Assembly: GCA_947570695.1 (NCBI GenBank)
Contig: CANOVB010000004.1
Span: 97,092 to 161,091, forward strand
DNA: 64,000 nucleotides
Origin: an uncultured Clostridium sp.
GTDB lineage: Bacteria; Bacillota; Clostridia; TANB77; CAG-508
Direction: 5' to 3'
Shown here: positions 26,091 through 52,175 of the stretch, piece after piece
Layout: each line of letters starts with the position of its first letter
How positions within the stretch are numbered: the first letter of the stretch is position 1
Notes under the pieces: generated by a model
The model's input: the letters and a program-made list of their open reading frames with translations, nothing else
Told to the model about the DNA's origin: nothing
Databases searched by the model: none
Made by a program: the position numbers and the translations under genes

Positions 26091-26564
26091 TTAAGTAAGT
26101 TTAACAGCAATCGTATGCTCGGCAAAGGTTTCGTGGCTCTCTCCCAGATTGCACACTCTGCCTTCAAAGGGAGCATCTGTCGAAACATAAACTTCCCTCT
26201 GTCCAAACTCGTGCTTGTGGGGCCCAATCTTGCCATCAAGATACTCAACAAGGAGCTTCCGCCATTTCCCTCCAACGTAAAGCTTGATGCTATCTCCCTT
26301 ATACGTCTTAACACCGCGGAAATTCTCCTTAGTAGTCATCTGTGCCGGCCCGAACTCGTACTCCACCACAACCTTGGTATCCAGGTTCTTTGCCAGGGAA
26401 ATAACCACAGATTCCAGACCGACTTTTTTGAAGAACTCCGCTGTTCCATTCAAATAGTTGACAACGAAAGTTCCTTCAGGAATCCCTACCAAAACAACGA
26501 TGCTGTCGTCACCCCCCTTCGCATTGATAGCTTTCTCTGCCATAGCAGCCACTTGGAATTTCAT
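26091..26564 (-). CDS. Compositionally atypical (G+C-rich) hypothetical protein, possibly cupin-fold
   Basis: 157 aa from MKFQVAAMAEK… Strong SD GGAGG sits 7 nt upstream (26572-26576). G-x4-HKHEFGQRE resembles cupin motif 1. Codon usage (GTG/CTG/GGC/CCC/AAG) is unlike the rest of the window. The track ORF extends 8 codons further upstream, but the RBS supports the 26564 start. Confidence 0.5.
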   Translation of the reverse strand: MKFQVAAMAEKAINAKGGDDSIVVLVGIPEGTFVVNYLNGTAEFFKKVGLESVVISLAKNLDTKVVVEYEFGPAQMTTKENFRGVKTYKGDSIKLYVGGKWRKLLVEYLDGKIGPHKHEFGQREVYVSTDAPFEGRVCNLGESHETFAEHTIAVKLT

Positions 26565-26648
26565 GCTTTTTCCTCCTTCTGTTCTCACGCGTTGCTAAAA
26601 TGAAATTCTTAGCTTATAATGACCTTCAAAAAATTACAAGCTTATTAT

Positions 26649-27103: not shown

Positions 27104-27775
27104 TTAGGCATTTGTCAAGTTGTTTTTCGCATTTTTAACATTATTTGGAATTATAAAAGCAATCTTTTTTTCTATTCCTCTTGCTTCTGCTATTTGGTTT
27201 TTTATTTTTTCATTTTCTAGTTTTAAAAACTCAGTTTGTACTTTTATATTTCCAAATATACCTTTTGGCTTTTCTTTGTGAATCACTGGCAAATATGACT
27301 TCCCATTATTTATTTTTTTACATGCTAATTCATATAATTTTTCATCAGAAATTTTGGAATTATTCTCAGCGTAATATTTTTCTTTTATATTATTATAAAT
27401 TGTACTCATTTCAGGTGTAAAACTTCCACCAAGATCTACTATAGCACAAGCATATATATCTGCTAAAAGATCTTTTAATTCATATTTATCTATATCTTTA
27501 TCCTTTTTAGCTTGTACTAATTCTATTTTTAATCTTACATTTTTCATTTTTTCAATTTGCAAATCATTTTTTCCAGTAATACCACCAAAAAACGAAAGAC
27601 CTTCAGAAGAAATCTCTTGTCCTTCTTGTATATATTTTTCTAATTTTACATTTTTTATAATAGTTTGCACATCATCATACAATTTTATTTTAGCTTTATT
27701 TTTGGCTTTTTTTATGTTTTCTTTCTCTAACTCGTTGTTTTCTTGTACTTCGACACTTTTATCTATTGTATCCAT
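27104..27775 (-). CDS. Hypothetical protein
   Basis: 223-aa Lys/Glu-rich ORF with no recognisable motif. Not a YceD/DUF177 (no CxxC pairs), although it occupies the position upstream of rpmF. Confidence 0.45.
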   Translation of the reverse strand: MDTIDKSVEVQENNELEKENIKKAKNKAKIKLYDDVQTIIKNVKLEKYIQEGQEISSEGLSFFGGITGKNDLQIEKMKNVRLKIELVQAKKDKDIDKYELKDLLADIYACAIVDLGGSFTPEMSTIYNNIKEKYYAENNSKISDEKLYELACKKINNGKSYLPVIHKEKPKGIFGNIKVQTEFLKLENEKIKNQIAEARGIEKKIAFIIPNNVKNAKNNLTNA

Positions 27776-28039
27776 AAGTTACCTCACTTTATGAAACTAT
27801 TTTATCAATACAATATAAATATTTCAATACATTTTTTCTAAAAGTCTTCTTATTTTTTTGACACTTAAAAGCAAAAGAGGACATTTAATAATTGCAAAAG
27901 ACAAAATTTTACTATCCAAATATGTTCTCTCCATAATAACTTATCTGTAAAAATCTAATTACTGAATCTAAAAAATATTTGATATATAAAAATTGCTAAA
28001 GGCTTTATTTAATAGAAAGTGTAGAATATTTTCCTATAA

Positions 28040-28080
28040 ACATAAAGAACATTTTATATATATAAAATGTTCTTTTTTTA
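28040..28080 (-). terminator. Palindromic rho-independent terminator downstream of the ADA-like fusion gene
   Basis: 12-bp stem AAGAACATTTTA/TAAAATGTTCTT with TATATA loop, T-run after. Confidence 0.5.
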
Positions 28081-28088
28081 ATAAATTT

Positions 28089-30614
28089 TTATGCAAGTTT
28101 ATTTGCTTTTCCTATTTCTGGGTAATCTTTCAATATTTGTTCTGCTAAGTTATCATTTACTTTAAAAGCTTTTACGTATCCTTCCAAAAAAGTAGCTTTA
28201 TCTTTTAGTGCTTCAACTTCTGAATTCACATATATATTAGCTTTTCCTTTACCATTTTTAGCTTCTTGAACTAAGTTTGAAACAGGCGAATTTCCATCAA
28301 ATGCAACTACTATTGAATTTCTTCTTTCAAATATTTCATAATTGAAACTTTTATAAATCCCCATTTCTTCTCTTTCAGTTGATATTCTAATTCCATTTAT
28401 ATTTTCTTTTAAAATTCCATCAATTTCTTCTGCAGATATCTCTTTGGGTACAATCGCATTTATTTCAAATTTTTTATTTAATTCTTTTGCAGCATCTAAA
28501 ACTGCTTTTTCATAACCATTAATTTTGTGCCCTACTACAAAATATACTTTCTTTTCATCTAAATTTTCTACAAGTTTTCTAATAACTTCTTTTCCTTTTT
28601 CATCTAAAACAGTTTCTCTATTTTTAGCATTAAAACTTCCACCAGCTATAACTACAGGTACTTTATCTTCTGGTAATTTTTTTATTTTTCCTTTTAACTT
28701 TTCCTCTGAACTTAATTTATTACTTAATCTCATTGGAATTATATTATCTTTACTTTTTTCTATATTTTCTTTTTCACATTCTAATATAGCTTCTCTTATT
28801 GACCTTCCAGCTAAAAACTTTTCAAACTTTTTAGCTTTTTCTTTAAAGTATTTTTTTGAATGATTTATTATTTCATCTTCAACTTCTCTCATTTTAGAGA
28901 AATCTTCCTCTGAAAGTCCTATTAAATTCTGAAGTGCTAATTGCTCATCTATTGTATCTGAACCATAAAATCCACATCCATCAGTTCCTTGTACACATTT
29001 TATCCCATTACTTAAATATTGTTTTAATGGATGTTTATCTAGAGCAGTTAAATTATTTAATCTTACATTAGAAGTTAATTGAAATTCTAATACAGCACCT
29101 GTTTCTTTCATAGATTTCATTAAAGCTTTACCTTCTTTAGAATTTAAGTCAGCTGTATATAACCCGTGTCCTAATCTAAATCTTGGTATTTTTTGTCCCT
29201 TTAATAAAGATGATTTTATACATTCAATAGATTTTGCAACATTATCTCTTAAACTATCATTTTCTCCAGCATGTATTCTTATTGTAAATCCTTTATCTTC
29301 ATTTACAGCATATTGAACAAGTTCTTTTATAACTGGTTGTAGTTCTGAAATATCATTAATTTCTTCTCCTATAAAATCACTACCAACTACATAAGGACTT
29401 TTTGCAACTGCTTTTAATACATCTAAATTTTCTCTTAAATAATTTGAACTTGTTTTTTGATCTTTAATTATTGTTAAAGGAATTCTTCTTATTGCAAATA
29501 ATAGTCTTATTTGAACTCCTGTTTCAGCTTCAATTTTAGGCATAATTTCGTGTACATCCTCTAATACTTTTACTGCTGGTTCTCCAAGTTTTGCTAAATC
29601 TGTGTCTGCTATTTCTGTATAAATAATTCCTTGTTTTTGATATTCTCTTGCTATCCACAAATATTTATCTTGTCTTAAAGTATTATGTTCAAAAACGCTT
29701 CCTGTTTTTTTATCTTCTAACATCTTTTTAACATAAGATACAATATCATTTTCAGGTATTTTTTCTATATCTTTTATATTTAATTTAATTTTGTTTTCTG
29801 ATACTGTTCCTTTACAAAATACATATCTATAAATATATAATTTTTCAAGATTTGTGAAAACTGCCTGCCCATCTTTTAGTAAAGCTAAGCTTGTTCTAAT
29901 TTTTAAAATATTTTCTTCAGCATTTTTTAAGTTATTTAATATTAAATCTGCAAAATTTATAAAAGTGTTATCATCTATTTTTCTTGTTAAATATTTACCT
30001 TGCAATTCTGAGTTTTCAAATTGTTTTTCTACAATTTTTCTATCTTTATATATTGCTTTTTCCTGCTTTTGTGTTAATTTTAAATTTAATTTCTTTATAT
30101 AATATAATGGATATCTTAATTGATTTACTATTCCAAGTGAAATTAGAACATCTGGTGTTAAATTTGCATTCATATGTGTATGCAAATCTGTTCTAAATTT
30201 TGATTTTTTAAATATATAAGACTTTACTATTGTTTTTGTTATATCAAATTTATAATCTTTTGTTTGCGACATTAAAGTTTTTGTTATTGCTGGCATTTTT
30301 GCTTTTACTTCAATTCTATTTTCATATATATTTGCTATTTTAGTTCCTGCTAACCTAAAAATATATACCTCTTCATTGTCGCCATTAATTGAAGCAGGTA
30401 TTACATCTTTTATTATTTTTAAATTATTTTCATCTTTAATTGTTTCAAGATTACATAGTTTAGCTAAATTTGAAATTAAATTTCCACTTTTATGATTAGG
30501 AGTTCTTATAATATATGTTAATTCATCCTCAGCTTTTTTATTTTTATATAGTTCTACTACAATATCTTTTTCTTTGTCTATATAAAACTTGTTAAAGTAT
30601 TCTAAATTTTCCAT
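28089..30614 (-). CDS. Multidomain protein: unknown N-terminal domain, adenosine-deaminase-like amidohydrolase domain and C-terminal SLOG/LOG-like Rossmann domain
   Basis: 841 aa. ADA-family metal ligand motifs in correct order: DLHTHMNANL (HxH, around res 143-147), RIHAGE (around res 445), GHGLY, VQGTDGCGF (terminal Asp motif). C-terminal PVVIAGGSF… VVGHKINGYEKAVLDAA resembles the DprA/LOG/SLOG GxxxGxDxxA Rossmann signature. Confidence 0.65.
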   Translation of the reverse strand: MENLEYFNKFYIDKEKDIVVELYKNKKAEDELTYIIRTPNHKSGNLISNLAKLCNLETIKDENNLKIIKDVIPASINGDNEEVYIFRLAGTKIANIYENRIEVKAKMPAITKTLMSQTKDYKFDITKTIVKSYIFKKSKFRTDLHTHMNANLTPDVLISLGIVNQLRYPLYYIKKLNLKLTQKQEKAIYKDRKIVEKQFENSELQGKYLTRKIDDNTFINFADLILNNLKNAEENILKIRTSLALLKDGQAVFTNLEKLYIYRYVFCKGTVSENKIKLNIKDIEKIPENDIVSYVKKMLEDKKTGSVFEHNTLRQDKYLWIAREYQKQGIIYTEIADTDLAKLGEPAVKVLEDVHEIMPKIEAETGVQIRLLFAIRRIPLTIIKDQKTSSNYLRENLDVLKAVAKSPYVVGSDFIGEEINDISELQPVIKELVQYAVNEDKGFTIRIHAGENDSLRDNVAKSIECIKSSLLKGQKIPRFRLGHGLYTADLNSKEGKALMKSMKETGAVLEFQLTSNVRLNNLTALDKHPLKQYLSNGIKCVQGTDGCGFYGSDTIDEQLALQNLIGLSEEDFSKMREVEDEIINHSKKYFKEKAKKFEKFLAGRSIREAILECEKENIEKSKDNIIPMRLSNKLSSEEKLKGKIKKLPEDKVPVVIAGGSFNAKNRETVLDEKGKEVIRKLVENLDEKKVYFVVGHKINGYEKAVLDAAKELNKKFEINAIVPKEISAEEIDGILKENINGIRISTEREEMGIYKSFNYEIFERRNSIVVAFDGNSPVSNLVQEAKNGKGKANIYVNSEVEALKDKATFLEGYVKAFKVNDNLAEQILKDYPEIGKANKLA

Positions 30615-30685
30615 TATTATATTATCTCCTACCTTTCTTTTTTATTTATACTAGTTAATTTTATATTATACCAGAAAAAGCAAAA

Positions 30686-30735
30686 AAGTGCAAGTTTTTG
30701 CACAAAAAAACAAGATACTTTTTGTATCTTGTTTT
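30686..30735 (-). terminator. Rho-independent terminator (double hairpin) downstream of the LRR-dockerin gene
   Basis: 10-bp perfect stem AACAAGATAC/GTATCTTGTT with TTTTT loop and a second GTGCAA…TTGCAC hairpin. On the minus strand a U-rich tract follows. Confidence 0.55.
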
Positions 30736-30758: not shown

Positions 30759-31060
30759 CTAATTACCTAAAATTGAGTCTTTTAGGAATTGGAAAGCATC
30801 ATACATACGTACATTTCCGTCTCCACTATAGTCTCTTATTTTTACATCTATTGCATCTAGAGTTGCTCCTGGAATTATTGTATCTTTTAGTATTTGAAAT
30901 GCATCATACATTCTTGCATATCCGTTTCCTGTTACATCTCCTGGTACTACTGCTGTAATTTCTGCAAATACATTTCCAAGTTCATCTTCAATTTTTATAA
31001 CAGCTCTTGAGCCAATCTTATCTGTATTTTCTTTTTCATTTCCGTTTTTATCTAATATTT
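30759..31060 (-). repeat. Dockerin-module DNA repeat, copy 1 (3' end of LRR gene)
   Basis: About 200 bp of near-identical nucleotide sequence (…aaaattgagtc…gcatcatacatacgtacatttccgtct…ctcctggaattattgtatcttttagtatttg…catcatacattcttgcatatcc…) plus about 100 bp of more diverged similarity. Shared with the copies at 33389 and 35827. Confidence 0.7.
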
Positions 31061-33203
31061 TTACTTCATAATTATTATTTATTGCTGGGAAATTTTCAAC
31101 ATTTACATAATCTTTTACTCCTATTGCTGTTTCGAATGGTATAATTGTTACATCTTTTTCATTTACTTTTACTGCTTCTAGTTTATCTGTTTCACTATTT
31201 ACTTTAACAAATTCTCCATCTAATGCTACAAATTCAAAACCTTTCTCATTTGCTAGCTCTTCTGCTTTACTTCCTTTATATCCATAAATAACTGGATTAA
31301 AATCACCTTTTTCAAAAAGATATTCTTCTGCTAAAAGACTAAATGTTCTTGGTAATACTAATTTTTTCATAGCTGTACATTTATAAATTCCACAAGTATC
31401 AATTTCTGTTAGTCCCTCTGGTATAACTAATGCTTCTAATGAATTGCATGCAGCAAATGTATTATGGTCTATTTTTTTTATATTTTTTGATAAAGTTATT
31501 TTTCTTAAATTTGTACATCCACTAAAAACTCCTCCTGAATACCCTTCAGTATTTCCTGTATTATCTCCTAAATAAACTACAGTATCTGGAACAACCATTT
31601 CTGTTATTGATGTGCATCCATAAAAAGCCATTCCTCTAATATCTGTTACACTTTCTGGTATTATTACATTATTTAAAGATGTACATCCCCAAAACAATCC
31701 ATAAGATATTATTGTAATATTTTCTGGTAAAGTAATATTTTGTAGTAATTTGCATTCTTCAAAAGCTTCTCTTCCTATCTCTGTAACACCTTCTGGAATA
31801 TTTATGCTTTTTAATTTTTGACAATTAAAAAATGCTCTATCTCCAATTTTTGTAATTGTTTCTGGTAATATGATTTTTTCTAAATTGTAATCTGCATAAT
31901 CTCTATAAAAAGCTCCTTCTCCAATTTCAACTACTGGCAAACCTTCATAAGTTTCTGGCACAGTTACTTCTGTTTCATTCATTCCAAAAAAGTCTTTTAC
32001 TATATAGCCTGTTCCTTCTGAATTTAATTCATAAACAGGACCTACCATTTCATAATATGGGTCTTTTTTTACATTTACTCCTCTAGTTTCCAAATCAGCT
32101 AATACTTTAGAATTTACTTCACTATCTTGAGCAAATGGATTTGAAGTTAAATCTACACTTTTTAAATTTGATAAGTCTTTTAAAAAGCTTATATCTTGTA
32201 TTTTATTTCCTTGAGCTGTTATTGTTTCTACACTAGGGCAATTTGATATATTTACTTCTGTTACTTTTGCATTAGCAAATTGAATATCTTTTAATTTTGG
32301 TAAATTTCTCAAAGTAATTGTTTTTTCTTTATTACTTGAAATATTTATATTAAATGTTTCTAAATTTGATAAATCTGCTAAATTTATTTCATTTAAATCT
32401 GTTCCACCTAAATATATTGTTTTTAAATTGTTTAATGAATTTATCCCAGATGCATCTGTAAGTGGATTGTTAGTAACTTGAATAGTTTCCAATTTAGTTA
32501 AACTAGATAAATCTGGTATTGATGTAATTTTATTATTTGTTAATGATAATCTCTTTAAATTAGTACAACTATTTAATGCAGATATGTCTATTATTTCATT
32601 CGTTGCTAAGTCAAGAGTTTCTAAACTACTAATACTTGCAAGTGGAGTTACATCTTTAATACTATTATTGTTTAAAATTGCTGATGTTAAATTTTGAAGT
32701 TTTGCAAGTTCTGACATATTAATTATATTACGTGCCATAATTGTTAAATTGCTTAAATTTGTAAATCCTCCTATTCCTGTTAAATCTATATCTTCTTTTG
32801 TCCCTGCTCCTAATACTTGTATCCACATTGTTTGTATTCTTTCTTTATTTGGATAATTTGCTAAAGGTACAAGACTTTTAATTGTTCCATCAATAGTAAG
32901 TGTTCTTAATGAAGTAGCATAAGTTAGTGCTGAAAAATCACTAGGTAAAACATCTTTAAATGTTATTCCTACTAATCTTTCTATTTCATTTACTGAAATT
33001 TCTCCATCTTCATTTGCATCTAACATTTCTCTTGGACTTATATTTATTACTGTTTTCAATAAAAGTGATTTTAAATTTTCATCTTCTATTGGTATAATAT
33101 CATCTCCTGTAAGTCCCTCTTCTACTGCAAAAGAATTTGGCATTATCAACAATAAGGCTATTGCAAATACTGTTAAAATACTCAATATAATTCTTTTATT
33201 CAT
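30759..33203 (-). CDS. Secreted BspA-type leucine-rich-repeat protein with C-terminal dockerin module
   Basis: 814 aa. Signal peptide. LRR region (…LSNLTxL…NxIxDI…). LRR_5/BspA-type repeats (IPEGVTEIGREAFEEC…, FYGCTSIT…). C-terminal twin Ca-binding loops GDVTGNGYARMYDAFQILKD … RDYSGDGNVRMYDAFQFLKD match the dockerin DxNxDGxxxxxD duplicated segment. Confidence 0.7.
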   Translation of the reverse strand: MNKRIILSILTVFAIALLLIMPNSFAVEEGLTGDDIIPIEDENLKSLLLKTVINISPREMLDANEDGEISVNEIERLVGITFKDVLPSDFSALTYATSLRTLTIDGTIKSLVPLANYPNKERIQTMWIQVLGAGTKEDIDLTGIGGFTNLSNLTIMARNIINMSELAKLQNLTSAILNNNSIKDVTPLASISSLETLDLATNEIIDISALNSCTNLKRLSLTNNKITSIPDLSSLTKLETIQVTNNPLTDASGINSLNNLKTIYLGGTDLNEINLADLSNLETFNINISSNKEKTITLRNLPKLKDIQFANAKVTEVNISNCPSVETITAQGNKIQDISFLKDLSNLKSVDLTSNPFAQDSEVNSKVLADLETRGVNVKKDPYYEMVGPVYELNSEGTGYIVKDFFGMNETEVTVPETYEGLPVVEIGEGAFYRDYADYNLEKIILPETITKIGDRAFFNCQKLKSINIPEGVTEIGREAFEECKLLQNITLPENITIISYGLFWGCTSLNNVIIPESVTDIRGMAFYGCTSITEMVVPDTVVYLGDNTGNTEGYSGGVFSGCTNLRKITLSKNIKKIDHNTFAACNSLEALVIPEGLTEIDTCGIYKCTAMKKLVLPRTFSLLAEEYLFEKGDFNPVIYGYKGSKAEELANEKGFEFVALDGEFVKVNSETDKLEAVKVNEKDVTIIPFETAIGVKDYVNVENFPAINNNYEVKILDKNGNEKENTDKIGSRAVIKIEDELGNVFAEITAVVPGDVTGNGYARMYDAFQILKDTIIPGATLDAIDVKIRDYSGDGNVRMYDAFQFLKDSILGN

Positions 33204-33388
33204 GTTTTCTCTCCTCCTTTTAATTAATTTCGTTTTCTATTAAAATTCTTAAATATTATATATTTTTGATAGGAAAATATAGCGAGAATTTCTACTCACA
33301 AAATTAAAAATCTAGCTTTTATTTGATTAATAATCTATAAAAAATAAATGAAAATTTAAAATTAAACTTTCATTTATTTTTCTATAAT

Positions 33389-33690
33389 TTATCCTAAAAT
33401 TGAGTCCTTCAAAAACTGAAATGCATCATACATACGTACATTTCCGTCTTCATTATAATCTCTTATTTTTACATCTATTTCATCTAAAGTTACTCCTGGA
33501 ATTATTGTATCTTTTAGTATTTGAAAGGCATCATACATTCTTGCATATCCATTTCCTGTTACATCACCTTTTACTACTATTGTATATTCTGCAACAATAT
33601 TTCCACTTAAATCTTCTATTTTTATAACATTTCTAGAACCTATTTTTTCATTATTATTTTTAATATTGTTTGATAAATTGTAAAGTTTAA
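33389..33690 (-). repeat. Dockerin-module DNA repeat, copy 2 (3' end of CAP/Big_2 gene)
   Basis: Direct repeat of copies 1 and 3, roughly 90% identical over the first ~200 bp by eye. Confidence 0.7.
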
Positions 33691-35773
33691 CTTTATAATT
33701 TATATCTAATATTGGAAATTTTTCTGAAGTTAAAATAGTATTAAAACTTGTATTTTTATTAAATACCATAATATCCTTTGAAGAAATTTCTGCTGTAGGA
33801 ATTGTTGTATAAATAATATCTAATATTTGTACTTTTACATTACATGTTGCTGTTAATTCACTTCCATCTAAAGTTTTGGCTGTTATTATTGTGGTTCCAT
33901 TTTTTAGTGCTGTTACTACTCCTTCTTGATTTACTGTAGCTATACTTTCGTCATCACTAGTCCAATAAACCTCCTTTTCACTTGCATCTTCAGGAAGTAT
34001 TATAGCACCTAATTTTTCTGTTTGGTTCTTATATGAAAAACTAATATTAGATTTATTTAAAGATATACTTTTAACTGGATTCACTACAAATACTGTTACA
34101 TAAGTTTCTGGTGTCATTTGAGTTTTATCCTTAGAACTGAATCCTTTTGCTAATATATTACAAACTCCTTCTCCTACTGCTGTTATATTTCCTTTTTCAT
34201 CAACTGTAGCAACATTTTCATTACTACTTCTAAAAAGTACTTCTCTATATGTAGCATTAGTTGGATTAAGTGATACCGTTAATTTAGTCTGTTCTCCAAT
34301 TACAAGTCTTTCTTTTTTTAATTTTAAATTAACACTTGAAAGTGGTATAAATTTATTAACCAAAACATAGCATTGAGCTGTTTTTCCATTGCTTGTAGTT
34401 GCTGTTATTATTGCAGTTCCATTACTTATTGCTTTCAAGTTTCCATTATTATCAATAGTTACCACAGCATTATTACTTGACTCCCATGTAATAGTTTTAT
34501 CATCTGTTGTATCATTTGGTAATATAGTTGCTACTATCTTTCCACTTTCGCCTTCTTCTAAATTAATATTTTCTTTGTCTAATATTATACTTTCTATATG
34601 TATATTGTCTAAAACAGTTATATTATATGTAGCAGTAGCATCTCCAATGCTTGCAGTAAGAACTGCTTTTCCTTGACCTGTGGCTGTTATTTTTCCATTT
34701 TTGTCTACAGTAAATACATTTGTGTCTGAACTTTTCCAAGTTAAATCTGAAAAAGCTATTGAAGTTTTGGCTGATTTATAACCTGCATTTGTATTTTTTA
34801 CAGAAGTTGGTGATAATGTTTCTCCAATAAATAATGTGTTATTTTCATTTATTCCTTTTATGCTTATATCTATATATCCTTTTCCAACTGCTACTTCTAC
34901 TGTATTATTCACATCTTTTTTCCCTGATAAAGTATTTTCATTATCTGAATTACTTTTTGAAAACAGCTGTACCCAATATGTTAATCCATTAATTTGATAG
35001 CAGCCTACTCCAATAGCTTTGTGTGTTTCCTTTACTATTTGAGCTTTATGCCCCGATGAATTCATCCATTTATCCATTATATTTAATGTACTACTTGACC
35101 CTACTCCTATATTTTCTCCATTAATTTTCTTATTTACAGAAAAGCAAGAAAGTCCATTAGGTCTATCATGATCCCAATATATTGAAATTTCAGTAGCTCT
35201 TTGCATAGCTGATTCCATTAAACTATTATCTATTGTTAGTAAACTTAGTCCAAGTTTTGATCTTTCTTCATTTACTAAATCTACTACTTCTTTTGCTTTG
35301 TCATAATTATATGTACCACTTATATTTACATTTACAATTTTTCTATATGATCCATCACTTAATTGAGTAAGTGTTGATGGAATCGTATATTCTGTAAGTT
35401 TTGGGCATGCATTTTTAAAAATATTGCTTATGTAATTTAATGTAGATGGCATTTTTACAGTTGTTAAATTTGGACAACTATCAAAGGCATAAGCATCAAT
35501 TCCTAATATTCCTTCAGGTAATATAATAGTTTTCACAGTAGAATTATTTTCAAAAGCAAGTATTCCTATCATTGTTACTTTTTTATTATCTATCATACTT
35601 GGTACTGTGACAGTTTGTTCAGTTCCTGTATATCCTACTATGCTTATTGTTCCATCACTTAAATTATCATACTTATAATTACCACTTGAAGTTGATGCAT
35701 AAGATTTATTATTTAAAATAAATTGCCATACCAAAACTAGTAAAATAATTAAAATTGTTTTTACTTTTTTCAC
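33389..35773 (-). CDS. Secreted CAP/SCP-domain protein with multiple Big_2 (bacterial Ig-like) domains and C-terminal dockerin module
   Basis: 794 aa. Signal peptide. CAP-like region (…NSSGHKAQIVKETHKAIGVGCYQ…). At least four Big_2 repeats (…TWxSSNxxVATVDxxGNxTAxxxGTAxITAT…). C-terminal dockerin shared with the neighbouring genes. Confidence 0.7.
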   Translation of the reverse strand: MKKVKTILIILLVLVWQFILNNKSYASTSSGNYKYDNLSDGTISIVGYTGTEQTVTVPSMIDNKKVTMIGILAFENNSTVKTIILPEGILGIDAYAFDSCPNLTTVKMPSTLNYISNIFKNACPKLTEYTIPSTLTQLSDGSYRKIVNVNISGTYNYDKAKEVVDLVNEERSKLGLSLLTIDNSLMESAMQRATEISIYWDHDRPNGLSCFSVNKKINGENIGVGSSSTLNIMDKWMNSSGHKAQIVKETHKAIGVGCYQINGLTYWVQLFSKSNSDNENTLSGKKDVNNTVEVAVGKGYIDISIKGINENNTLFIGETLSPTSVKNTNAGYKSAKTSIAFSDLTWKSSDTNVFTVDKNGKITATGQGKAVLTASIGDATATYNITVLDNIHIESIILDKENINLEEGESGKIVATILPNDTTDDKTITWESSNNAVVTIDNNGNLKAISNGTAIITATTSNGKTAQCYVLVNKFIPLSSVNLKLKKERLVIGEQTKLTVSLNPTNATYREVLFRSSNENVATVDEKGNITAVGEGVCNILAKGFSSKDKTQMTPETYVTVFVVNPVKSISLNKSNISFSYKNQTEKLGAIILPEDASEKEVYWTSDDESIATVNQEGVVTALKNGTTIITAKTLDGSELTATCNVKVQILDIIYTTIPTAEISSKDIMVFNKNTSFNTILTSEKFPILDINYKVKLYNLSNNIKNNNEKIGSRNVIKIEDLSGNIVAEYTIVVKGDVTGNGYARMYDAFQILKDTIIPGVTLDEIDVKIRDYNEDGNVRMYDAFQFLKDSILG

Positions 35774-35826
35774 TATAATCCCTCTCTTTTTTAATTATTA
35801 AATTAATCAAAATTTATATAAATTAT

Positions 35827-36140
35827 CTATCTCAAAATCGAATCTTTTAAAAACTGGAAGGCATCATACATACATACATTTCCGTCTTCATTATAATCTC
35901 TTATTTTTATGTCTATTTCATCTAAAGCTACTCCTGGAATTATTGTATCTTTTAGTATTTGGAATGCATCATACATTCTTGCATATCCATTTCCTGTTAC
36001 GTCGCCTTTTATTACAGCAATATATCTAATTAATTCTTCACCTGCTTCATTTGAAATTACTATTGCATTTTTTGAACCAATTCTTTCATTTTCCCCTTGT
36101 TTTATGTTTTCATCTTTATCTACTATTTTAATTTCATAAA
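35827..36140 (-). repeat. Dockerin-module DNA repeat, copy 3 (3' end of transglutaminase-like gene)
   Basis: Direct repeat of copies 1 and 2. Confidence 0.7.
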
Positions 36141-37632
36141 TTCCTAATACTGGAAAATTCGCTTCAGTTAATACTGTTTTTATTAAATTATCTTTTCCAA
36201 AATTTAATACATTTTCTAATTTCTCGTCTAACTTTAATGTTGTATATATGACTTCACTTCCTGGCACAATATATACATTTGTTTTTTTGCTTTCAGTACT
36301 TGAGCCTCCATTTACTAAATCTGTTGTATCATAATAAAATTTATTATTCCTAAATTCTACTGAATATACTATTTTGGCAATATCTTCTAATCTATAAAGT
36401 TCTTCAATTTCTGTACCATCATAATTCATTTTCCAAATTGCATGTTGAGTAGTAAAATATAAATTTTTACTATCTTCTGTTAGACCTGGAAACCAAAAAA
36501 TGAAATCTGAAACATTTACTGTTATTTTTGAAGTTTCATTATTTCTGTAATTTATTTTTGTAAGTTCAAAACTATTTCTAGATTGATCATTAAAACTTTC
36601 TGGATTTTTTATGTAATACCAATAGTCATCTTTATAAATTAAATAATTATCTACAAAAAACCAATCTGAATTATCATATTTTTCACTTGTTCCAGCAACA
36701 TCTGATACCCAAGAATAATGTTCTCTATTATTTAAAAATTCTTTATCACTTACTAAAAAATATTTATATTGTGTTTTTCCATCTCCTTTTATATCATTCC
36801 ATGTAACATCTACATGATAGTAATTTCCATCTAACTTAACTAAATTCCATGCATGATTCATTGGATCACTTGTTGTAAGTACTGCTTCTATTTGGGCTTG
36901 TTTTAATAAATACATAAAAGCTTTAGAATATCCATCACATACTGGTCTTTCATCTACTAGTGCTGCTACCATTGTATGAATTCTTGGAGAGACTAAATCA
37001 TCTGAATATTCACATTTTTTGCATAAATAATTATTTGTGTAAATTATTTTTTCCAAGTCATTCCATTCTGGTTTTATTCCACTTAAATACTCTTCTACAA
37101 CTTTATTAATTACTTCCCAATTTGAACTTATTTCTTCTTTAGTCATTATATAATTAAAAGTTACAGTTGTAGTTATCCCATTTTGATATCCACTCCATGT
37201 TGCTCCATATACCGCAAAGAATTCTGGCTCTCCATATAGTAGTGTTATATATTTTGCAGTTTCTGCAAATGGTATATTATAAGCTGTTACATCTATATTT
37301 TCATTATGTTTTTTCATTTCTTGTAGCATATAATCTCTAAAAGATAAACTTTCAGAATCACTCATATATATACTTGGTTCATAATAATTATCTTTTTCTT
37401 GAGTATGTATTTTTTCATTCATTTCATAATAATTATCATAATTTATAATAATTTCACTTTCTACAATTTGATTATCTTTAATGTCACTACTAATTTCTTC
37501 CTCTTGAATACTTGAAATTGTTTCTTCATCATTTACACCACTTACAATCTCATCTGTAGCCAATACTTCTGGACTAATTATCAAAAGCATTATAATTAAA
37601 CTAATACTAAATAAATAACTAATCTTTTTCAT
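35827..37632 (-). CDS. Secreted transglutaminase-like cysteine protease-fold protein with C-terminal dockerin module
   Basis: 601 aa. Signal peptide. Transglutaminase-core triad context CDGYSKAFMYLLK … HAWNLVKLDGNYYHVDVTW. Same C-terminal dockerin (GDVTGNGYARMYD…RDYNEDGNVCMYDAFQFLKD). Confidence 0.65.
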   Translation of the reverse strand: MKKISYLFSISLIIMLLIISPEVLATDEIVSGVNDEETISSIQEEEISSDIKDNQIVESEIIINYDNYYEMNEKIHTQEKDNYYEPSIYMSDSESLSFRDYMLQEMKKHNENIDVTAYNIPFAETAKYITLLYGEPEFFAVYGATWSGYQNGITTTVTFNYIMTKEEISSNWEVINKVVEEYLSGIKPEWNDLEKIIYTNNYLCKKCEYSDDLVSPRIHTMVAALVDERPVCDGYSKAFMYLLKQAQIEAVLTTSDPMNHAWNLVKLDGNYYHVDVTWNDIKGDGKTQYKYFLVSDKEFLNNREHYSWVSDVAGTSEKYDNSDWFFVDNYLIYKDDYWYYIKNPESFNDQSRNSFELTKINYRNNETSKITVNVSDFIFWFPGLTEDSKNLYFTTQHAIWKMNYDGTEIEELYRLEDIAKIVYSVEFRNNKFYYDTTDLVNGGSSTESKKTNVYIVPGSEVIYTTLKLDEKLENVLNFGKDNLIKTVLTEANFPVLGIYEIKIVDKDENIKQGENERIGSKNAIVISNEAGEELIRYIAVIKGDVTGNGYARMYDAFQILKDTIIPGVALDEIDIKIRDYNEDGNVCMYDAFQFLKDSILR

Positions 37633-37635
37633 TTC

Positions 37636-51584: not shown

Positions 51585-52175
51585 TTAATTTAAACTATCT
51601 TTTTCTAACTTCTCTCTTATTATTTCTAATGCTTTTCTTCTTGCACTGATTTCATTTTTTTCGTGCATACTTAATTCAGCTAAAGTTTTTCCATTTTCTA
51701 GTTCAAAAATTTCATCAAATCCAAATCCATATTCTCCTCTTGGAGCCTCTGCTATATAACCATCTAAAATTGTAACTGCTGTAATAACTTTTTCTCCTTC
51801 TGCTAAAGCAATAGCTGTTATACATTTTACTTTCCTATTTTCTTTGCTAACACCTTTTAATTTATTTACAATTTCCAAATTTCTATCTCTGTCACTTCCT
51901 TTATGCCATCTTTTAGTATATACACCTGGAAATCCATTTAAATATTCAATTTCCATTCCAGTATCATCTGAAATACATTTTTTTCCATTTAAATGTTTTG
52001 ATATTTCAGTTGCTTTTTTAATAGCATTACCTTCAAAAGTATCTTTATCTTCTTCAACATCAATATCATCTGATACTTCACTTAATGGTATTATTTTAAA
52101 TTCGCTTAAAATTTCTTGTGCTTCTCTTATTTTTCCTTTATTACCAGAAGCAATTACTATTTCATCTTCAGACAT
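51585..52175 (-). CDS. rdgB: Non-canonical purine NTP pyrophosphatase (ITPase, RdgB/HAM1)
   Basis: 196 aa. IVIASGNKGKIRE, FEGNAIKKA, SDDTGMEIEYLNGFPGVYTKRW motifs. Confidence 0.9.
   Translation of the reverse strand: MSEDEIVIASGNKGKIREAQEILSEFKIIPLSEVSDDIDVEEDKDTFEGNAIKKATEISKHLNGKKCISDDTGMEIEYLNGFPGVYTKRWHKGSDRDRNLEIVNKLKGVSKENRKVKCITAIALAEGEKVITAVTILDGYIAEAPRGEYGFGFDEIFELENGKTLAELSMHEKNEISARRKALEIIREKLEKDSLN

Follow-up and report, generated by a model that had tools for sequence, protein, structure and literature searches.

An adenosine deaminase-family protein with a predicted C-terminal SLOG domain, encoded by a conserved chromosomal gene of gut Clostridia

Recent work has shown that sensor-fused adenosine deaminases (ADAs), namely Cad1 and RdrB with RdrA, act in phage defence by producing inosine triphosphate (ITP), which poisons the nucleotide pool. 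In an uncultured Clostridium sp. we have analysed a gene, called here the ADA-SLOG gene, in which the ADA catalytic module is joined to a different predicted sensor fold, SLOG, and which at least 528 species carry as a core gene with a low rate of evolution. It lies on contig CANOVB010000004.1 (GenBank assembly GCA_947570695.1), of which we studied positions 97,092 to 161,091 of the forward strand; this whole stretch of 64,000 nucleotides is the window, and coordinates given without a locus name refer to it. Databases label the encoded 841-aa protein just 'adenosine deaminase'. We found no description of an ADA-SLOG or ADA-LSDAT fusion in the literature searched, an earlier mention in the 2015 SLOG-family paper being possible.

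Cad1/CAAD (PDB 9c67, 8z3k), a type III CRISPR effector, resembles the window protein in its sensor-plus-ADA design. Its sensor is, however, an N-terminal CARF domain and not a C-terminal SLOG domain, and the window protein has in addition a beta-rich N-terminal domain that is not Rossmann-like and a large helical insertion. Outside the barrel Cad1 shows no sequence similarity to the window protein (PDB E = 0.69); indeed, the match of the open reading frame (ORF) to the PADLOC profile CARF_ADA spans positions 326-559 of 605, that is, the ADA part only. Cad1/CAAD is also an accessory effector, whereas the window gene is a conserved core gene, with no CRISPR-like array and no tRNA gene in the 64-kb window. 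RdrB of RADAR (PDB 8fnw) is without a SLOG domain and is structurally less like the window barrel than ordinary ADAs are; no RdrA ATPase adjoins the window gene, and no PADLOC RdrB match was obtained at E <= 1. The window protein also lacks the defining features of Thoeris ThsA, in which a SIR2 or other NADase is joined to a SLOG domain of the STALD type and the gene for a TIR protein, ThsB, lies alongside. Unlike the known SLOG clades (TRPM-type or LSDAT, LOG, MCP, DprA, ThsA, YpsA), its SLOG domain was found only as a C-terminal ADA fusion, reaches no Pfam SLOG model and is devoid of the LOG catalytic motifs. Canonical ADAs of cog1816 (E. coli Add, ADA1, ADAL/MAPDA; PDB 4gxw, 3ou8, 7rtg, 8qch) measure about 330-360 aa against 841 aa here; compared with them the window protein has Gly for the second Asp of the DD pair, some 160 residues are inserted after strand 1, two extra domains are present, and the NCBIfam equivalog score is about a quarter of the cut-off. 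Eukaryotic AMP deaminase (AMPD; PDB 2a3l, 8hu6), a large, allosterically regulated enzyme of the ADA superfamily that steers flux from adenylate to IMP, is the functional analogue that we propose.

The ORF was confirmed with exactly the limits first given to it and an ATG start. The start Met is common to it and to full-length homologues at 87-88% identity, and an identical protein (P0001) is encoded on 4 contigs. The Pfam family A_deaminase (PF00962) matched aa 321-576 with 66.9 bits for a cut-off of 27 (E = 2.1e-18), and the top sequence matches in the PDB were Plasmodium and bacterial adenosine deaminases. In the AlphaFold model a (beta/alpha)8 barrel superimposes on solved ADA structures; the best structural matches were plain cog1816 adenosine/adenine deaminases, a result with which Foldseek concurs, and lower scores were obtained for Cad1/CAAD (18.5), plant AMP deaminase (16.5) and RdrB (16.1). 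Looking at the catalytic residues, H145, H147, H448, E451, H483 and D545 were invariant in an alignment of 42 full-length homologues, and the last four of them were also invariant in relatives of 29-30% identity. The form TDLHxH is found in relatives at 29% identity, and the gap in the HxH column of the 29-30% set is due solely to P0343, which starts past the motif, the N-terminal portion being encoded by an ORF of its own upstream. Where canonical ADAs have the second Asp of the DD pair, an invariant Gly546 is found here (GTDGCGFYG in the window protein, NSDDPGMF in Plasmodium ADA), and D545, G546, G548, Y550 and G551 were invariant even at 29% identity. In canonical ADAs this second Asp (mouse D296) contacts purine N7. 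Together with the conserved R263 of the helical insertion, Gly546 suggests a non-canonical substrate binding. By profile, fold and motifs the protein is thus a member of the ADA family, and it is not an orthologue of canonical Add.

No sequence library recognised aa ~640-841, and neither the window protein nor 40 close homologues matched a Pfam SLOG or LSDAT model at E <= 5. A separate model of the C-terminal domain, built with 40 homologues of 53-84% identity, was confident (predicted local distance difference test, pLDDT, 86; predicted template modelling score, pTM, 0.80) and has an alternating beta/alpha Rossmannoid fold. When it was compared with known structures, the N-terminal domains of TRPM5, TRPM2 and TRPM8 scored 13.2-12.1, DprA 12.7, LOG-type proteins 12.7-11.0, ShosA 11.9, YgdH 11.7, the ThsA SLOG domain bound to 3'cADPR 9.6 and YpsA 9.5. 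The longest structural alignments, of 175-189 residues, were those with the TRPM N-terminal SLOG domains; these bind nucleotides and are not catalytic. The predicted three-layer alpha/beta Rossmannoid fold fits SLOG members better than other Rossmann folds. Two segments quoted earlier, PVVIAGGSF and VVGHKINGYEKAVLDAA, lie at aa 653-661 and 693-709; they hold the AGGS and GHxxxGxE loops, whose residues G658 and S660, and G695 and E702, were invariant down to 29% identity. Loops of these two types form the ligand pocket in SLOG proteins, and many polar residues of the domain are invariant among homologues. Aligned with hhalign, the loops fall on VFAGS and VYGGSRVGLMG of LOG, without statistical support.

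Membership of the LOG family was considered and rejected: hhalign against a LOG profile made from PDB sequences gave 0.8% probability and aligned only the N-terminal half, the window protein has neither of the LOG signatures PGGxGTxxE and MHxRK, and none of the 40 members scanned matched Pfam LOG (Lysine_decarbox). The sole sequence link to a named SLOG family is a weak one to LSDAT (TRPM-type), through distant homologues: P0415 reached 24.4 bits on LSDAT_prok ('SLOG in TRPM, prokaryote'; cut-off 25.4, E = 1.9e-5), and P0376 reached 16.8-17.8 bits on both LSDAT models (PF18171 and PF18139; E about 2-4e-3). A search of 1.84 billion representative proteins with the SLOG profile returned 208 clusters at E <= 0.001, mostly fragments of the same family, and an ADA domain was upstream in every examined match long enough to reveal its architecture. 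Since all the informative matches carry an ADA domain, the SLOG domain is an orphan clade at the sequence level, with ADA fusions as its only known form; the fusion itself is old and obligate. Judging from the model, the fold of the C-terminal domain puts it in the SLOG superfamily, and its sequence in no curated SLOG family.

The N-terminal domain had no Pfam or PDB sequence match and is kept in most relatives at 29% identity. Among 41 homologues its mean identity was 76.6%; all three domains stood at 74-79%, against 60.5% for the linker between ADA and SLOG, and all three are under strong purifying selection. The preliminary description of this DNA had placed in the ORF the four ADA/AMP-deaminase metal-ligand motifs in canonical order, an N-terminal region of about 130 aa of no recognised function and, in the last 200 aa or so, a Rossmann domain of the DprA/LOG/SLOG type. 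All four motifs are present, and conservation together with a Pfam match well above its cut-off (see above) excludes chance; the N-terminal region is beta-rich and matches no family. As to the last domain, the fold comparison gave SLOG and not an unrelated fold; the profile searches suggested at that time for SLOG, LOG and DprA families came out otherwise, neither the Pfam SLOG models nor the LOG profile giving a match. The analysis thereby defines a SLOG family missed by current Pfam models, and also an N-terminal domain without detectable relatives.

We then looked at the distribution of the protein with one genome per species. Its relatives are encoded in the species-level genomes counted above, and the best 80 are all full-length proteins of uncultured gut Clostridia, at 63-88% identity; Ca. 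Scatovivens and Clostridium sp. CAG:389 and CAG:575 are among their carriers. Gene order is constant in the 16 nearest loci (ADA-SLOG, the 223-aa gene, rpmF, dCMP deaminase, a membrane protein, engA). Farther subclades have the gene at other positions, each of them stable, with pheT, RNase Y, a SpoIIE-like phosphatase or HtrA as neighbours, and no neighbour is conserved throughout the clade. The same arrangement, 841-aa gene included, was found in 22 of the 22 contigs encoding an identical L32. Against seven relatives, non-synonymous divergence (dN, to be read in relative terms only, the synonymous divergence dS being near saturation) was 0.07-0.17 for ADA-SLOG, 0.09-0.14 for the dCMP deaminase gene, 0.05-0.10 for engA and 0.24-0.46 for the 223-aa neighbour. 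No relative of the window protein occurs in 2.9 million viral contigs. Of the two proteins scanned with PADLOC, the window protein matched solely through its ADA domain and the adjacent 223-aa protein gave no significant match. The window gene is thus a slowly evolving, vertically inherited, single-copy-looking chromosomal core gene of a gut Clostridia lineage; because of its synteny, low dN, fixation, lack of viral relatives and own -10 element it behaves as a core gene rather than as part of a defence island. The architecture and its lineage-wide conservation are notable in themselves.

A different setting was found for distant relatives. A group of roughly a dozen proteins with 29-30% identity to the one in the window shares its three-domain architecture and sits in a conserved module of three or four genes, [~160 aa]-[~300-336 aa]-[ADA-SLOG]-[overlapping ~157 aa]. 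The ~300-336-aa upstream partner has a weakly Zn-phospholipase-C-like N-terminus (E = 0.03), and the ~157-aa partner, which overlaps the ADA-SLOG gene downstream, often has a paralogue farther upstream. One module (L082) shares its contig with genes for a Mob_Pre relaxase and TnpV, another (L088) lies amid PcfJ and NikA-like conjugation genes, and a third (L086) is 4.4 kb from AbiLi (PADLOC E = 1.4e-44) and near a ThsB-like TIR protein. The partner proteins themselves gave no PADLOC match, and the ADA-SLOG mobile module may be an uncatalogued defence system. Hidden Markov models of the ~300-aa and ~157-aa partners had no match in the window; in the 80 loci the former has no homologue, and the latter was seen in three loci only, kilobases from the ADA-SLOG gene. 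In L085 (1246-4453) the gene is split into a 300-aa ORF with the N-domain and HxH and an overlapping 773-aa ORF with the rest, either because the gene is truly split or through a frameshift or an assembly error.

Two further branches carry a NUDIX gene. In a Chlamydiales metagenome-assembled genome (L089/L090, 9001-13232) a 927-aa protein with ADA and an LSDAT-type SLOG domain is followed, after a 3-bp gap, by a 481-aa NUDIX protein (E = 5e-7), and in L081 (8001-11737) a 1016-aa protein (ADA-SLOG-deoxyribosyltransferase-like) is followed by a Nudt16-like NUDIX protein. P0376 has an extra nucleoside 2-deoxyribosyltransferase-like domain. In the route reported for Cad1/CAAD, ATP is deaminated to ITP and a Nudix enzyme then turns ITP into IMP (PMC13276650; PMC11645235). 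The pairing of ADA-SLOG with NUDIX in two independent distant branches parallels this route and thus suggests a nucleotide substrate. The idea of a conflict system is plausible for these distant relatives and is not transferable to the window gene.

Taken together, these results make a nucleotide-sensing deaminase the best mechanistic reading. The gene would encode a three-domain, zinc-dependent purine 6-aminohydrolase of the ADA family whose activity is under the control of the C-terminal SLOG domain. The ligand of this domain would be a nucleotide or a small molecule derived from one (something like ATP, ADP-ribose or an alarmone), and its binding would be signalled to the barrel by way of the long connecting helix, by oligomerisation or by both. 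The CARF domain of Cad1 and the SLOG domains of ThsA and TRPM2 serve as analogues: we infer from them that the domain binds such a ligand and controls the deaminase. It would be a sensor and not an enzyme, the barrel would be catalytically active, and the adenine-nucleotide substrate and the ligand are candidates. The outcome would be a housekeeping control of the adenine-to-inosine pool, from AMP/ATP to IMP/ITP or from adenosine to inosine; such a role is the most likely one since a chromosomal core gene under strong purifying selection is concerned. To the claim that SLOG binds a nucleotide-type ligand and controls a deaminase acting on adenine nucleotides or adenosine, so setting the adenine/inosine balance, we give a probability of roughly 45%. 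If SLOG is indeed a ligand switch, the protein would be a bacterial counterpart of regulated AMP deaminase, and one sensor-deaminase design would serve housekeeping here and conflict in distant mobile-element relatives.

Several points weigh against the nucleotide-sensing reading. The score on the NCBIfam equivalog TIGR01430 was 54.4 bits for a cut-off of 216.55. The barrel is nearer to nucleoside/base deaminases than to AMPD, Cad1 and RdrB in the structure comparison, which weakens the idea of a nucleotide substrate, and since Gly546 replaces the N7-contacting Asp, the base-binding mode and even the substrate may differ from adenosine or adenine nucleotides. In the AlphaFold model several active-site loops (aa 451-454, 515-522 and 546-552) have pLDDT <50, so that the metal-ligand geometry is one that we infer from the conserved motifs and the fold. 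The substrate and ligand assignments are guesses, and the SLOG domain could be catalytic in a non-LOG way or a mere oligomerisation module. The NUDIX and defence contexts stem from relatives of 22-31% identity and need not apply to the window clade; and core status, strictly taken, is compatible with an immune role.

That role had been put forward in the preliminary description, which saw in the gene a possible phage-defence or conflict function. In its explicit form, a single protein of the abortive-infection type would sense an infection nucleotide through SLOG and turn ATP/dATP into ITP/dITP through ADA, leading to growth arrest in the manner of Cad1 and RdrB. The parallel with the sensor-plus-ADA design of Cad1 speaks for it, as do the variable surface-protein block adjoining the window gene and the 22-31%-identity homologues in 3-4-gene modules near Mob_Pre/TnpV, PcfJ/NikA, AbiLi (<7 kb) and a ThsB-like TIR protein. 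For the window gene itself this is unlikely: 63-88% identity in hundreds of species and a stable housekeeping neighbourhood, a dN as low as that of engA and the dCMP deaminase gene, fixation in all the species contigs and a sensor domain that is strongly conserved and not diversifying all point the other way, and the mobile-clade partner genes are absent from the window and from the immediate surroundings of the gene in 80 loci. The ADA-only PADLOC match, the lack of a CRISPR array and the lack of viral relatives add to this, so that a defence role is left unsupported here, with no conserved partner. Co-occurrence with defence islands, an association suggested in the same description, is seen with the 22-31%-identity relatives in mobile modules and a defence island, and not with the window clade, which sits amid housekeeping genes. 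An intermediate possibility, to which we give low odds, is that an immune-type sensor-effector was domesticated and is now a core regulator in a large, reduced-genome lineage of gut Clostridia. The orphan SLOG domain would then read an endogenous nucleotide signal (ADP-ribose, alarmone) and switch a deaminase that turns ATP (or AMP) into ITP (or IMP), and the mobile-element modules would be a new anti-phage system built on the same enzyme; if so, bacteria would have a switch of the purine pool, controlled by a second messenger, that has not been described before.

Two metabolic alternatives assign other tasks to the SLOG domain. If it were a LOG/PpnN-like nucleotide N-glycosidase, splitting for example AMP or IMP into base and ribose-5-phosphate, the protein would be a bifunctional purine-salvage enzyme whose ADA domain deaminates an adenine-containing substrate or product. 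Core-gene behaviour suits a metabolic enzyme, many polar SLOG residues are invariant, and P0376 bears a nucleoside 2-deoxyribosyltransferase-like domain. We nevertheless hold it improbable, as both LOG signatures are missing, the profile-profile comparison with LOG is insignificant, no scanned member matches Pfam LOG, and the weak link to a named family points to LSDAT, of the TRPM type, a sensor. In the other alternative the protein is an ordinary adenosine/adenine deaminase whose N- and C-terminal domains sense no ligand and only help it to assemble or keep it stable. Its closest structures are plain cog1816 deaminases, sources annotate it as 'adenosine deaminase', and SLOG proteins commonly oligomerise. 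A purely structural SLOG domain would, however, be unexpected because the ligand-binding loops (GGS, GxxxGxE) are invariant to 29% identity; in addition, the loss of the second Asp and the 160-residue helical insertion distinguish the barrel from a standard ADA, and the scores lie far under the NCBIfam equivalog cut-offs. We thus regard this simpler explanation as doubtful too.

Table 1. Coordinates of the features of the ADA-SLOG gene and of related elements (window coordinates unless a locus is named).
Feature	Coordinates	Strand	Remarks
Complete ORF, 841 aa + stop	28089..30614	(-)	TAA = 28089-28091
Beta-rich N-terminal domain, aa 1-105	30300..30614	(-)	AlphaFold model: 8 strands, 1 helix, pLDDT about 72-87
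Two linker helices, aa 106-139	30198..30299	(-)	Conserved motif IPAIxKTLMSQTKDY; 83% mean identity
ADA-family (beta/alpha)8 barrel, aa 140-600	28815..30197	(-)	Large helical insertion (aa ~170-330) and long C-terminal helix
HxH metal-ligand motif, H145-T-H147	30174..30182	(-)	In DLHTHM (aa 143-148); invariant in 42 homologues
HAGE motif, H448 (metal ligand) and E451 (catalytic acid)	29262..29273	(-)	RIHAGEND = aa 446-453; aligns with HAGE of Plasmodium ADA
GHG motif, H483	29163..29171	(-)	GHGLY = aa 482-486; aligns with RIGHG of Plasmodium ADA
T-D545-G546, D545 as terminal metal-ligand Asp	28977..28985	(-)	GTDGCG = aa 543-548; from alignment with Plasmodium ADA
Helix and low-confidence linker between ADA and SLOG, aa 601-649	28668..28814	(-)	Least conserved segment, 60.5% mean identity
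Predicted SLOG-fold Rossmannoid domain, aa 650-835	28110..28667	(-)	AGGS after strand 1, GHxxxGxE after strand 2, GIYKSFNYEIFERR helix, FDGNSPVSNLVQEAKNGKGK
Putative extended -10 element TGgTATAAT (TGnTATAAT type), then ribosome-binding site AGGAG	30665..30673	(-)	Read from sequence; consensus-type match only
Two hairpins with T-runs (30731-30704, 30703-30688), 3' of the upstream leucine-rich repeat gene	30688..30731	(-)	Sequence scan and reading
Putative terminator, AT-rich hairpin AGAACATTTTATA / TATAAAATGTTCT and T-rich tail	about 28036..28073	(-)	Read from sequence
Shared C-terminal module of two surface proteins	30759-30960 and 33389-33600		C-termini of the 814-aa and 794-aa proteins
ADA-SLOG mobile modules of distant relatives	L082 1-4063; L083 1-4090 + 7723-8211; L084 3-4019; L085 226-4453; L086 7445-12190; L088 7521-12173

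The immediate surroundings of the ORF are given in Table 1. The hairpin/T-run pair on its upstream side probably insulates it from upstream transcription, and the putative terminator hairpin, which begins 16 nt past the stop codon, was missed by a GC-based scan. A Rfam scan of 24-34 kb found no RNA family. With hairpin/T-run structures on both sides and its own -10 element, the gene is in keeping with the preliminary view of an independent unit between two terminators beside a surface-display locus: the upstream genes do encode surface proteins (leucine-rich repeat or LRR, Big_2, cohesin, sortase). The other two neighbourhood statements made there were borne out as well, the downstream gene encoding a 223-aa protein that matches no family and no partner ATPase being adjacent, as the neighbours are this protein and an LRR protein. 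Among the window ORFs that were profiled, which are a subset, the annotated neighbours of the ADA-SLOG gene are housekeeping or surface proteins.

The gene for the 223-aa neighbour (27104-27775) has its own promoter-like site. It is kept only in the nearest clade, at 41-61% identity, and it is probably not a functional partner of the deaminase since it is limited to that clade and evolves about three times faster. In 13 loci of the 63-71% clade (L016, L022, L024, L028, L031, L036, L042, L048, L049, L052, L057, L059, L070) a 153-aa zinc deaminase of the CDA fold is encoded directly upstream of ADA-SLOG on the same strand; L048 7412-7873 is one example. The protein is TadA-like by NCBIfam, below the cut-off. 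It resembles guanine deaminase (B. subtilis GuaD), and its position is consistent with a purine-metabolic setting and a possible link. The window itself contains, 21 kb from the deaminase gene, a gene for a Ham1/RdgB-type ITP/XTP pyrophosphatase (51585-52175, Pfam E = 8.5e-54). It is a common housekeeping gene, whose product would be the obvious means of disposing of ITP, should the deaminase produce it.

Between rpmF and the dCMP deaminase gene a locally GC-richer stretch holds a 165-aa ORF (26091-26603, minus strand; 157 aa as called in the public contigs L091/L092) without a family match, which is overlapped almost wholly by a 162-aa ORF of the plus strand. This stretch had no Rfam match, and only weak relatives (27-30% identity) were found, at the same position in a few loci.

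On the other side of the ADA-SLOG gene, about 12.5 kb (30759-43207) are taken up by genes for BspA-type LRR, Big_2/CAP, transglutaminase-like, sortase, 1100-aa Big_2 and cohesin-domain proteins, and this block separates the gene from that of a RelQ/YjbM-like alarmone synthetase (43635-44381). In L001, L002, L005-L007, L010-L012 and L014 the ADA-SLOG gene is directly preceded by that of the synthetase, which in some of them has an HD-domain gene after it; since the two are adjacent in these relatives, the surface block looks like an insertion specific to the window species. A link of ADA-SLOG with the RelQ-like synthetase and the HD-domain protein was rejected as firm evidence, as the arrangement is seen in one clade only and ~13 kb of surface genes intervene in the window. 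Within the block, the 814-aa and 794-aa proteins share an almost identical C-terminal module of about 60 residues (GDVTGNGYARMYDAFQILKD...DGNVRMYDAFQFLKDSILG) that, judged by eye, looks like a duplicated dockerin-type calcium-binding repeat. A cohesin-domain protein is encoded in the same block (42053-43207, Pfam E = 1.3e-7), and the block may specify a cohesin-dockerin display system.

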